From: an uncultured Rickettsiales bacterium
Lineage (GTDB): Bacteria > Myxococcota_A > UBA796 > UBA9615 > CAYRNR01
Length of the DNA stretch: 64,000 nucleotides
Direction of reading: 5' to 3'
Assembly: GCA_964504165.1 (NCBI GenBank)
Contig: CAZDDH010000004.1
Location: 16,748 to 80,747 of the forward strand
Shown here: positions 2,972 through 4,593 of the stretch, in pieces
Numbering within the stretch: position 1 is the first letter of the stretch
Layout: each line of letters opens with the position of its first letter
Notes under the pieces: model-generated
What the model was told of the DNA's origin: nothing
The model's database searches: none
What the model saw: the letters and a program-made list of their open reading frames with translations, nothing else
Position numbers and translations under genes: made by a program

Positions 2972-4123
2972 CTATCGAACGAACGTGATGCTCATCCCAC
3001 CGCCTCCGCCTCCGCCGCTCGCGCTCCTCCCGAATCGATGACGTTCGAACTGCCGGGTGATGCAGCGTTCCATGATGGGATCGTCCAGGGAGCTACGCAC
3101 GATCTCTGTTACTCGCGGTATGCCGTCAGCCTCGTGCCGGTAGCGGAACTGTATCCCACCTGAGAGATTTGGTTTGCGTAGCAGCGCCTCCTCGAAACAG
3201 GGTTGGAAACTGGCGCGTTTGATCACGACACCCCAAATCTCCCACTCGTCCAACATGGAATTCGTCAGCTCGTCGGGCAACGGGAAATGCATGGTCACGG
3301 ACACGGGGCGCGGATTCGACCGCCCCGGGTGACGGATACGCAGCTCCATCGTCTCGAGGACGCACGACTCCATCTCCGGGTTGTCGAGGGTGCTGGCGGC
3401 CAGCCGGGGCAATAGCTGGCCATTCTCGGCACCGAAGGAGAAGCCCACGGTCATGCTCCCCGTGGTGGTTGGTTCCATCTCGAGGGCGCTGTAGTGGCAT
3501 CGATGGGCTCGCTCCTTGAGAAGGCCCCCGAGGAACCACTCATCCTGCACGAAACGATCGGGTTGGTAGCGCTGTGCCGGGTTCCCTACCGGGAACACGG
3601 GCACGGACTCGCTCACGTAACAGGTGAACTCCCCCCGTGGTGAGGAACGGCTCGCGCCGATGGCACCCCAGGACGCCAGGCACAGCGAGACGAGATCCTG
3701 GGCGGTCCAGCGGTCAGCGGGTACGAGCACGACCGCCGACGGTGTGCGCGCGTAGACGTGCTCGGCCACGGTCTGGTGCGCGTCGGCACCGTGTCCGATC
3801 CGCTCGATGGGCTCCCCCGGAACCCACAGCAAGGTGCCGTTGTCGGTGTCAGCGAGCGTCAGGGTGGGGTGGTTTCGGTAGACCCTGTCCGCCCAGAATT
3901 CAACGGCTCCCGACGGCATCCAGCGGAACGCGACGGCGCAGAGCGATGTGGGATTGGGCTGATCACGCGGCCCCAGAGGCAGGCCCTCACAGCCTTCGAG
4001 TTGGAGCCGGAAGTCCAGGGGAAGAGGCCGCTGCGCACCCCAGCTCCGGGGAGCGTCCAACCGAGTCAATCTCAATCGTCCTCTTCCGTACAAGGATAGC
4101 CCCCCGGCACATCCGCCCGGCAC
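2972..4123 (-). CDS. Hypothetical protein with an AgmX/PglI-like (TonB-C-like) C-terminal domain. The start is uncertain because the ORF overlaps the upstream small gene; an internal start near 3919 is possible.
   Basis: The C-terminal ~70 aa (SFQPCFEEALL...GGIQFRYRH...GIPRVTEIVRSSLDDPIMERCITRQFERHRF) align position by position with the C-terminus of the 4586..8578 protein. A Gly7 tract precedes the stop. Confidence 0.55.
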   Translation of the reverse strand: MPGGCAGGLSLYGRGRLRLTRLDAPRSWGAQRPLPLDFRLQLEGCEGLPLGPRDQPNPTSLCAVAFRWMPSGAVEFWADRVYRNHPTLTLADTDNGTLLWVPGEPIERIGHGADAHQTVAEHVYARTPSAVVLVPADRWTAQDLVSLCLASWGAIGASRSSPRGEFTCYVSESVPVFPVGNPAQRYQPDRFVQDEWFLGGLLKERAHRCHYSALEMEPTTTGSMTVGFSFGAENGQLLPRLAASTLDNPEMESCVLETMELRIRHPGRSNPRPVSVTMHFPLPDELTNSMLDEWEIWGVVIKRASFQPCFEEALLRKPNLSGGIQFRYRHEADGIPRVTEIVRSSLDDPIMERCITRQFERHRFGRSASGGGGGGGMSITFVR

Positions 4124-4593
4124 CCCCCGATGGCCGGCAACGACGTACGCCGGATCTTGTTCTCGTCCACCTCGTCCCCCTGCTCCGGGGCCTCCTCCGG
4201 GGAGGGCTGCTCCGCATCCCCGGAGACGGGAACGGGCTCGGGCTGGGCGGCCGGATCGGCGGCCTGGATCTGGGTCTCGCGGCAGCCGGTGAGAGACTGG
4301 CTGAGCACGGCTCCCCCAAGCAACACGACGGCGGTGGCCGCGGTCTGGCGGAGGAACTCCCGGCGCTGGGGGGCCGGGGGGGGCATGCCCTCGGCGAGGA
4401 CGCGGATCTGCTGGTCGGGGATGGACTGCAGGATGCGCTCTTCGTTGGCGGTCAGCGCGATACCGGCGGCCCGGGCGACCTGCCCGCGCCGCTCGACGAG
4501 CTGCTGGCGGAAGGCCCCGTCCACCGAGGCCAGGCGCAGCAGCTTCTGCAGGCCGGCCGGGATGCCGGGCAGGGTGGGATCGTGATCACTCAA
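4072..4593 (-). CDS. Small hypothetical protein (~170 aa). It carries a twin-arginine/lipobox-like motif (RREFLRQTAATAVVLLGGAVLSQSLTGC) and an acidic Pro/Glu-rich tail ending in two Cys. A candidate TTG start overlaps the stop of the upstream giant gene; the alternative start is the ATG at 4388 (105 aa).
   Basis: GC3 is about 90% throughout 4389..4585 in this frame, which argues for coding from the TTG at 4593. The RRxFL...LTGC motif is read directly from the translation. Confidence 0.45.
   Translation of the reverse strand: MSDHDPTLPGIPAGLQKLLRLASVDGAFRQQLVERRGQVARAAGIALTANEERILQSIPDQQIRVLAEGMPPPAPQRREFLRQTAATAVVLLGGAVLSQSLTGCRETQIQAADPAAQPEPVPVSGDAEQPSPEEAPEQGDEVDENKIRRTSLPAIGGCRADVPGGYPCTEEDD

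Follow-up and report, generated by a model that had tools for sequence, protein, structure and literature searches.

To our knowledge, precursors of RiPPs (peptides that are made on ribosomes and modified after translation) that carry export signals, such as bufferins and DAG-RiPPs, have been recognized only recently, and all described cases combine an N-terminal Sec-type signal with MNIO enzymes. In proteusin-type systems, an NHLP leader is paired with B12 radical S-adenosylmethionine (SAM) C-methyltransferases. The present analysis concerns a small gene on the minus strand (4072..4593) of a 64,000-nucleotide stretch of DNA (contig CAZDDH010000004.1, positions 16,748 to 80,747; hereafter the window), which lies between a giant gene (4586..8578) and an open reading frame (ORF) at 2972..4123. 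Os1348, to which the N-terminal part of the small protein is related, is an 85-residue protein linked to antibiotic activity and a putative post-translationally modified precursor (Takeuchi et al. 2020, PMC7726476). DAG-RiPPs are RiPP-lipoprotein hybrids, the lipobox-bearing precursors of which are modified by MNIO enzymes (PNAS 2026, PMC13056109); the same paper makes no mention of the twin-arginine translocation (Tat) pathway, radical SAM enzymes, or NHLP leaders. Literature searches found no description of an NHLP-like leader combined with a Tat lipoprotein signal and a radical SAM enzyme.

As a whole, the locus is best explained by a small protein that joins a leader domain to a Tat lipoprotein signal and is coupled to the giant protein, its tail being putatively modified, exported, and lipidated, while the second ORF is the remnant of a deletion; this combined explanation is given about an even chance of being correct. 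The window (GC content ~0.66-0.72) derives from a population of uncultured Myxococcota, and contigs near-identical to it are present in ENA, Logan, and JGI metagenomes. On the minus strand, the giant gene, the small gene (4072-4593), and ORF 2972-4123 come in this order after a cluster encoding an Opp-type ABC transporter; a conserved 157-residue ORF and the his genes converge on ORF 2972-4123 from the plus strand.

The homolog search with the small protein retrieved at least 109 proteins, all of them unnamed and all from metagenome-assembled genomes (MAGs) and metagenomes of Myxococcota or 'Deltaproteobacteria' (motif counts refer to 103 members for the twin arginine and the cysteine, and to 102 members for the lipobox positions). 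This Myxococcota family is undescribed and uncharacterized. Its members follow a fixed plan, in which an Os1348/NHLP-like helical N-terminal domain precedes a Tat-type lipoprotein signal and a disordered Pro-rich, acidic tail with GGxxxDxP motifs. The N-terminal element SPRTTIVGGRPPE opens 84 of the 103 members and is missing from the window copy, which has lost the TIVGG element. It is followed by a domain of ~55 residues with the consensus IQxLLRLASVDxxFRxELVxRR...LTxxExxIL..., which corresponds to residues 15-69 of the window copy (4387..4551, minus strand). As in Os1348 and other NHLP-clan RiPP precursors, this domain is helical: in the model that AlphaFold2 (AF2) builds from the family alignment, residues 13-69 form five short helices (pLDDT above 90), residues 75-102 form one long helix, and the tail is disordered. 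The profile of the Os1348 family in the NHLP clan (NF038399) matches 27 of 29 family members, with a best E-value of 2.4e-11; the window copy (E=1.1e-6, 28.6 bits) differs from the Os1348 family in scoring below the curated cut-off of 40. Os1348 (PDB ID: 6lk7) is also the top Foldseek match of the small-protein model, although at a non-significant level (TM-score 0.63), and the sole match of the family profile among PDB sequences (E=0.035). On these profile and fold comparisons, the N-terminal region is related to the Os1348 family, yet fails the curated threshold for membership in NF038399. NCBIfam NF058595, a 'lipo-invert putative C-terminal anchoring domain', was matched weakly (E=0.0066) by one of the 29 aligned members; no paper using the term 'lipo-invert' was found.

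An earlier reading of the window from its letters alone (the sequence-only reading) had proposed that the TGA of the giant gene overlaps a TTG that opens a small frame rich in G+C at third codon positions (GC3). The overlap amounts to 8 nt and the GC3 of the small frame is ~0.9. Gene callers picked the same TTG 4593 for this gene (P0001), which is called in several assemblies. A comparison with the ortholog in the relative L002 (82% identical) yielded a ratio of nonsynonymous to synonymous substitution rates (dN/dS) of 0.25, as expected if the frame is conserved as coding in relatives. Judged by its homologs, codon usage, and substitution pattern, the small gene is a real, conserved coding gene. 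An internal start at the conserved Met, Leu, or Val before PPP was considered as a family feature and rejected, as the codon at the MPPP position is a possible start (ATG or GTG) in only 14 of 29 loci; for the same reason the long form is regarded as the conserved product. That translation starts only at the internal ATG 4386 (MPPPAPQRREFL...), giving nothing but a short Tat lipoprotein of the conventional kind, with the upstream 69 codons untranslated or open by chance in GC-rich DNA, is barely credible. This ATG is situated six codons before the twin arginine and would yield a textbook Tat lipoprotein precursor, and spurious long ORFs are common in high-GC genomes; however, the upstream region is conserved at the protein level in more than 100 homologs (~60% identity), shows a dN/dS of 0.35 against L002, has a match in a known protein family, and is predicted to fold (pLDDT above 90). 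Besides, the MPPP-position codon is not a start in 15 of 29 loci, and the GAGGG in front of ATG 4386 lies only 1 nt from it.

The arrangement of the start of the full-length frame points to the giant gene. At the junction (4586..4604, minus strand, read from the sequence), the giant frame ends with ...GAG TGA (TGA 4588-4586), the small gene starts with TTG 4593-4591, and a GGAG sequence (4604-4601) is placed 7 nt upstream of this TTG. The same TTG start is kept in the L002 ortholog, while in the distant relative L035 the two genes meet in an ATGA overlap, and on the P0057 contig they overlap by 4 nt. Since the overlap recurs in these distant relatives, the small gene is translationally coupled to the giant gene. 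In the nearest relatives (L002-L004), the giant protein is 70% identical to that of the window, and all three genes are found in the window's order; the giant homologs that adjoin small-family copies in L035 and L036 are ~30% identical, and another such homolog is encoded on the P0057 contig. The pairing of the small gene with the giant gene is thus seen in three diverged lineages. What comes after the pair varies: the window clade has the gene for the AgmX/PglI-C protein at this place, L036 one for an S41 peptidase, L035 one for a STAND-like NTPase, and the P0057 contig one for a VWA protein. Because the third gene differs between lineages, the conserved unit consists of the giant and small genes, not of three genes. 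Scans for promoters and terminators and for Rfam families returned nothing relevant.

In the Pro-rich tail of the family, the repeat RPDH(N/R)EMQTxGGAAPDxPPER occurs one to five times (160 instances), along with a TRGxSxDxPP variant; in this the tail resembles multi-core RiPP precursors with their repeated short motifs. In the window protein a single degenerate repeat is present, TSLPAIGGCRADVP; defined by the family repeat consensus, the C-terminal motif TSLPAIGGCRADVPGGYPC (4090..4146, minus strand) is this one copy, followed by the acidic end TEEDD; the three giant-linked lineages all retain the GG..., D, and P of this motif. Giant-linked small proteins uniformly lack the TIVGG element, have one tail motif each (GGCRADVP, GGHRADTP, or GGAMADEP), and finish in Cys followed by acidic residues. 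The acidic, Pro/Glu-rich tail with two Cys that the sequence-only reading had noted is borne out, with the cysteines at positions 158 and 168.

Members of the family usually adjoin a gene for a B12-binding radical SAM enzyme, a feature shared with NHLP-clan and proteusin systems. It is the next gene in L005 and L008, where it encodes 492-504 residues with B12-binding and Radical_SAM domains. According to tblastn, 19 of 27 genome loci have this enzyme (72-79% identity) next to the small-family gene, directly downstream of it or, in one case, upstream, and all-against-all clustering of neighbors identified it as the sole conserved neighbor of the family. Two further traits distinguish these loci: no epimerase, protease, or transporter is conserved near the family, unlike in NHLP-clan RiPP loci, and the conservation of the radical SAM enzyme across MAGs is more housekeeping-like than that of secondary metabolism. 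The nearest curated family of the enzyme is ApyD, though its score, 157 bits, stays below the cut-off of 750. The ApyD enzyme, a peptide beta-C-methyltransferase, acts on Tyr and produces beta-methyltyrosine (ApyD paper). Methylation of Asp by analogy was therefore dropped, and the chemistry is not assignable from the ApyD match. Seven MAGs contain one radical-SAM-linked copy of the small-family gene together with unlinked further copies, the giant-linked ones among these. By its gene neighborhood, the window copy is an unlinked paralog of the copy linked to the radical SAM gene.

Across Myxococcota MAGs, the small-family gene followed by the B12 radical SAM gene forms a two-gene cassette (L005 10001-12341; L008 10001-12354; L010-L034). 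Neither of the cassette proteins is covered at cut-off by any NCBIfam or Pfam family. Other copies have different neighbors. Two tandem small-family genes without an adjoining radical SAM gene are located on one MAG contig (L017 3637-4602). In L007, L026, and L033 (~10000-16850), a small-family paralog is followed by genes for 352-residue and 1,592-residue proteins without Pfam or NCBIfam matches, an arrangement conserved (88% identity) between two groundwater MAGs. The paralog P0031 (L037/L038 8001-8468), which comes from the same sampling project as the window and is 52% identical to the window copy, is devoid of the lipobox Cys and is encoded between a PQQ-like beta-propeller protein gene and a pyridoxamine-oxidase-like gene.

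The most characteristic element of the family is the internal Tat-type lipoprotein signal, with the consensus MPPPxPxRRxFLRQTAATAVVLLGGAAL and a subsequent lipobox ([LV][SAT][GA]C). In the window copy it reads RREFLRQTAATAVVLLGGAVLSQSLTGC and extends from R77 to C104 (4282..4365, minus strand); the sequence-only reading had found this motif, although it had placed it about 65 residues into the protein. The RR pair is present in 101 of 103 members and the lipobox Cys in 102 of 103, at a median distance of 28 residues (range 24-38); of 102 members, 91 have a canonical lipobox residue at position -3, 85 at position -2, and 89 at position -1. As in Tat lipoproteins, the window copy combines a twin-arginine motif of the (S/T)RRxFLK type (QRREFLRQ) with a weakly hydrophobic h-region and, 28 residues past RR, the lipobox LTGC with Cys104, which agrees with the pattern [LVI][ASTVI][GAS]C at the h-region end. 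The hydrophobicity over 19 residues is 1.44 (family median 1.43), i.e., below the typical threshold for transmembrane (TM) helices and typical of Tat h-regions. Among the parts of the small gene, the RR-to-Cys segment shows a dN/dS of 0.13 against L002, and the twin-arginine signal profile TIGR01409 matches 6 of 29 members at E<=0.01, with P0045 scoring 16.7 bits. Such family-wide statistics indicate that the internal Tat/lipobox-like motif is genuine and the hallmark of this family as a whole. For this segment, a double-glycine (LLGG) site of leader cleavage was considered and rejected: no peptidase-containing ABC transporter is conserved beside the family, and the surrounding residues misfit the known motif.

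Several observations weigh against Tat export and lipidation of a modified window protein. Its TIGR01409 score (15.2 bits) falls just under the cut-off of 16.7. Unlike in Tat lipoproteins, the signal is not N-terminal, as RR occupies position 77 in the 173-residue window copy and positions ~100-129 in canonical members. The twin arginine is kept in the window copy and L036 and lost in one giant-linked lineage (RAARLRH in L035, RMARLRS in P0057). The radical SAM enzyme of the family is absent from the 64-kb window according to tblastn, which sets the window copy apart from RiPP loci and leaves its radical SAM modification a conjecture. The main rival explanation is that the small protein is a bitopic inner-membrane protein, in which the RR...GG...C segment forms an uncleaved signal-anchor helix that is neither exported by Tat nor lipidated; with its leader in the cytoplasm and its tail in the periplasm, the protein would regulate or bridge the giant protein like TonB or an anti-sigma-type linker. 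The continuous helix modeled by AF2 over residues 75-102 fits such a topology, as does the N-terminal domain, which puts the segment 76-100 residues into the protein, a position atypical of cleaved signals. It would also be compatible with the loss of the twin arginine in the L035/P0057 lineage, and the Pro-rich tail recalls TonB spacers beside a neighboring protein with TonB/ExbD-like parts. On the other hand, the segment is less hydrophobic than typical TM helices, and an uncleaved anchor gives no reason to conserve a Cys with a canonical lipobox at 24-38 residues past RR in 102 of 103 members. The signal-anchor topology is therefore judged rather unlikely. Rieske proteins provide an example of internal or signal-anchor Tat substrates.

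If the signal is a Tat lipoprotein signal, the small protein may mature as follows. Through translational coupling it would be made together with the giant protein, and the cytoplasmic leader domain would hold it for recognition. The GGxxxDxP motif might then be modified by a B12 radical SAM enzyme whose gene lies in another part of the genome, after which the Tat-type signal would move the tail across the inner membrane once translation is complete. The Tat route fits because a cytoplasmic, oxygen-sensitive enzyme must act before export, which Tat permits. Lgt and LspA would subsequently lipidate Cys104 and cut off the leader and the signal together. The resulting acidic lipopeptide of ~70 residues would be tethered in the periplasm, as a putative accessory subunit or ligand of the periplasmic domains of the giant protein.

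By analogy, the nearest published concept to this putative maturation is the DAG-RiPP class. As in DAG-RiPPs and signal-peptide-bearing bufferins, a peptide putatively modified in the cytoplasm would carry a lipobox signal and be finished by the general lipoprotein pathway. In contrast to their N-terminal Sec-type signals and MNIO enzymes, the signal of the small protein is internal, of the twin-arginine type, and located after a folded leader, and the partner enzyme of the family is a B12 radical SAM protein. The leader also differs from those of NHLP-clan precursors in that it precedes a Tat-type lipoprotein signal instead of a double-glycine site served by a peptidase-containing ABC transporter. 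It is tentatively proposed, as a possibility less probable than its negation, that the family represents a new class of ribosomal peptide-lipoprotein hybrid, in which an NHLP/Os1348 leader stands before a Tat lipoprotein signal, a B12 radical SAM enzyme modifies the GGAAPDxP repeats, Tat exports the product, and Lgt/LspA remove the leader and signal while lipidating it, the window copy having been recruited as a coupled subunit of a giant envelope protein. If true, this would tie RiPP-style maturation to a cell-envelope machine, not to an antibiotic, and would extend the idea of RiPPs with export signals in three respects, the enzyme class, the export route, and a 'leader before signal' layout, each of them new; the pairing with the radical SAM gene would offer a directly testable two-gene cassette. 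The presence of several family copies per genome and the joining of one sub-lineage to a giant membrane protein suggest a structural or physiological role in the envelope rather than a diffusible natural product.

The ORF downstream of the small gene is a different matter. In L002-L004, the third gene encodes a 768-residue protein with seven TM helices in its first ~290 residues and two AgmX/PglI-C domains at its end, whereas the window ORF aligns, without gaps and at 79% identity, only to residues 413-768 of this protein. The homologous part (2972..4042, minus strand) comprises 356 codons and a stop. At the DNA level, the alignment with L002 (blastn) runs until 14 nt before the third-gene ATG and resumes 1,248 bp later, so that the start codon and the first 412 codons are missing relative to L002. 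Both breakpoints share the 8-bp sequence (C/T)TGGGGTG, which remains in the window as the microhomology CTGGGGTG at the deletion junction (4036..4043, minus strand). An assembly artifact was rejected as the cause of the truncation, as the junction is identical in a Logan contig (L040, SRR8062320) and in JGI contigs from two samples (L041 and L042). On this alignment, a microhomology-mediated deletion of 1,248 bp cut a membrane-protein gene and left the second ORF as its 3' remnant. Former intergenic sequence makes up the 81 nt upstream of 4042, and the deletion joined the remainder of the gene in frame to this sequence, which explains both the open frame back to GTG 4123 and the apparent overlap with the small gene. 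The sequence-only reading had taken this overlap at face value; it exists for the maximal ORF, yet homology to the real gene starts only at 4042, and in the intact L002-type relative the third gene begins 50 nt past the small gene without any overlap. Word-based homolog searches with the ORF and with the giant protein provided no outgroup to polarize the deletion; the former retrieved only the query itself, and the latter the query and one CD109-like protein.

A start scan of the remnant revealed TTG 4075 (in a TTGA overlap with the small-gene stop, with GAGGA 4-9 nt upstream), TTG 4069, and ATG 3919 as candidates, and gene callers disagree between TTG 4075 (367 residues) and ATG 3919 (315 residues). 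No TM helix or signal sequence is left in the remnant. A point against its being a mere remnant is its dN/dS of 0.30 against L002, no higher than in intact genes, together with the lack of stops and frameshifts in the 356 codons; taken by itself, the pairwise dN/dS cannot separate a recent deletion from continued function. One might suppose that the truncated product has found a different function as a soluble protein, its translation restarting behind the small gene (at TTG 4075 or TTG 4069), and that the deletion made a working coupled gene. The in-frame fusion, the TTGA overlap with its GAGGA, the uninterrupted codons with their dN/dS of 0.30, and the identity of the truncated state across several samples would be in keeping with such a gain. 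TonB-C-type domains (TonB, TolA, GltG/J), however, act in the periplasm, whereas this protein retains neither a signal nor a TM helix; moreover, frames stay open by chance at high GC content, the pairwise dN/dS is mostly a record of the time before the deletion, and the homolog search found no further proteins with this architecture. A new role is therefore considered unlikely, and the remnant, which would be without an export signal if translated from TTG 4075 or 4069, is probably non-functional.

The sequence-only reading had also interpreted the locus as a three-gene module with translational coupling. An intact module would have the giant gene, the small gene, and the second ORF all coupled, with two paralogous TonB-C-like proteins acting together. 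The three frames do share a strand and overlap or abut, TTG 4075 (used by one gene caller) overlaps the small-gene TGA downstream of GAGGA, both larger proteins match NF033768, the dN/dS of the second ORF is 0.30, and the closest relative also has three genes in order. Nevertheless, the native start and the seven-TM domain of the second ORF have been deleted, the intact third gene starts 50 nt away from the small gene, its place is taken by other genes in L035, L036, and the P0057 contig, and the C-terminal domains lack significant pairwise similarity (see below). An intact module is hence quite improbable: the coupling of the small gene to the giant gene holds, while the second ORF is not an intact partner. 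A synteny check agrees, retaining the giant-small pair in L035, L036, and the P0057 contig and not the third gene. For annotation, the apparent 'second TonB-like gene' is corrected to a deletion remnant, and the case shows that where operons are called from overlaps in GC-rich DNA, a deletion can have produced the overlap.

The C-terminal domains of the two larger proteins had been reported to align residue by residue. BLASTP finds 12 identities in 57 positions (12.3 bits, E=99) and no match between the isolated domains, and a profile comparison (hhalign, two-sequence profiles) gives the same register at a non-significant E-value of 0.065. The remnant itself contains two AgmX/PglI-C-like copies, at residues ~196-283 (3275..3538, minus strand) and ~296-372 (3008..3238, minus strand) in the numbering of the 383-residue maximal ORF, which are related to each other (hhalign, E=2e-6, 28% identity). 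NF033768 covers two stretches and, at 55.7 bits (E=4e-15, best stretch 302-370), passes its cut-off of 40, as does the 768-residue L002 ortholog with 56.5 bits. The domain of the giant protein (residues 1236-1324; 4607..4873, minus strand) was modeled over residues 1223-1329 with a pLDDT of ~90. It matches NF033768 at E=4.8e-6 with 26.6 bits, under the curated cut-off of 40, and TIGR01352 at E=0.002; Pfam TonB_C matches its L002 ortholog at E=1e-4, with 23.2 against 24.6 bits. By profile and predicted fold, it is a TonB-C-like domain akin to those of TonB and TolA and not a member of the NF033768 family. On these comparisons, the locus encodes three TonB-C-like domains from a single superfamily, and the two C-termini do not form a recent pair of paralogs: what survives of the earlier claim is the likeness in profile and predicted fold, without close or recent paralogy.

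The last domain of the second ORF resembles AgmX/PglI (GltG/GltJ) of the Myxococcus gliding machinery in passing NF033768. Unlike GltG, however, it reaches only 44.9 bits with the GltG equivalog NF033760 (C-terminal region only; cut-off 650), its membrane anchor is lost, and no glt or agl genes are found in the neighborhood, which is occupied by the Opp ABC transporter and his genes. The domains of the giant protein, in turn, differ from the known Glt architecture by being embedded in an alpha-2-macroglobulin-like protein. Judged by these scores and neighbors, neither protein is GltG or GltJ. An ExbD-like domain in the second ORF (residues ~100-160) was considered and rejected, since a custom profile built from the ExbD-like region of the giant protein and its matches gave E=0.23 with a negative score. 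PDB sequence searches with the second ORF and with the C-terminal half of the giant protein returned nothing useful.

The giant gene encodes 1330 residues from TTG 8578 (gene callers prefer ATG 8560 or 8485), with a GC3 of 0.89 and a dN/dS of 0.30 against L002. Its product, an inner-membrane protein, consists of a signal peptide, alpha-2-macroglobulin-like MG domains within the first ~600 residues (a weak MG2 match; MG2, MG3, and bMG3 in orthologs), two TM helices (665-710), an ExbD/TolR-like domain, further TM helices (~880-986), a disordered linker, and the TonB-C-like domain. The ExbD/TolR-like domain (residues ~738-879; ~5942-6367) retrieves ExbD-family proteins from 1.8 billion representatives, and the TM helices on either side of it show no evident protonatable Asp. 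In a Foldseek search with a 730-residue model, TonB C-terminal domains were the best matches (2gsk_B with probability 0.99 and TM-score 0.55; 2grx_C; 1u07), and ExbD (8vgc) and TolR (5by4) were matched as well. Two relatives of 1,922-1,975 residues (P0115 and P0117) are complete alpha-2-macroglobulins with a bait region, a thioester domain, and a receptor-binding domain; both share the region aligned to giant residues ~665-1071, and P0115 also ends in TonB_C. The L035 homolog stops before the TonB-C-like domain, which is therefore regarded as specific to the window's clade. The N-terminus of the giant protein (8540-8578, minus strand) reads (M)RGTSWMGLIVACC; it could be a short lipoprotein signal with the lipobox IVAC, as in bacterial alpha-2-macroglobulin lipoproteins, or an ordinary signal cleaved after AAA.

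Among the surrounding genes, the Opp-type cluster upstream of the giant gene encodes an ATPase, a MopE-motif protein, a substrate-binding protein, and two permeases. Putative metal-binding motifs of the MopE type are present in two window proteins (12469-14517 and 18280-19671, both on the minus strand); one of the MopE-motif genes is inserted between the genes for the ATPase and the substrate-binding protein, and this arrangement is conserved in L002. The convergent ORF at 2468-2953 (plus strand), which abuts the end of the truncated gene, codes for 157-161 residues, with a single TM helix at the N-terminus; its identity to the counterpart in the relative is 89% and its dN/dS 0.24, and it matches no family. 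Finally, a single ORF at 24-1115 (plus strand) unites the C-terminal part of a His_biosynth (HisA/HisF-like) domain with PRA-CH and PRA-PH (HisIE) domains, which points to a fused his gene; in one ENA annotation this ORF is split or extended in another way.

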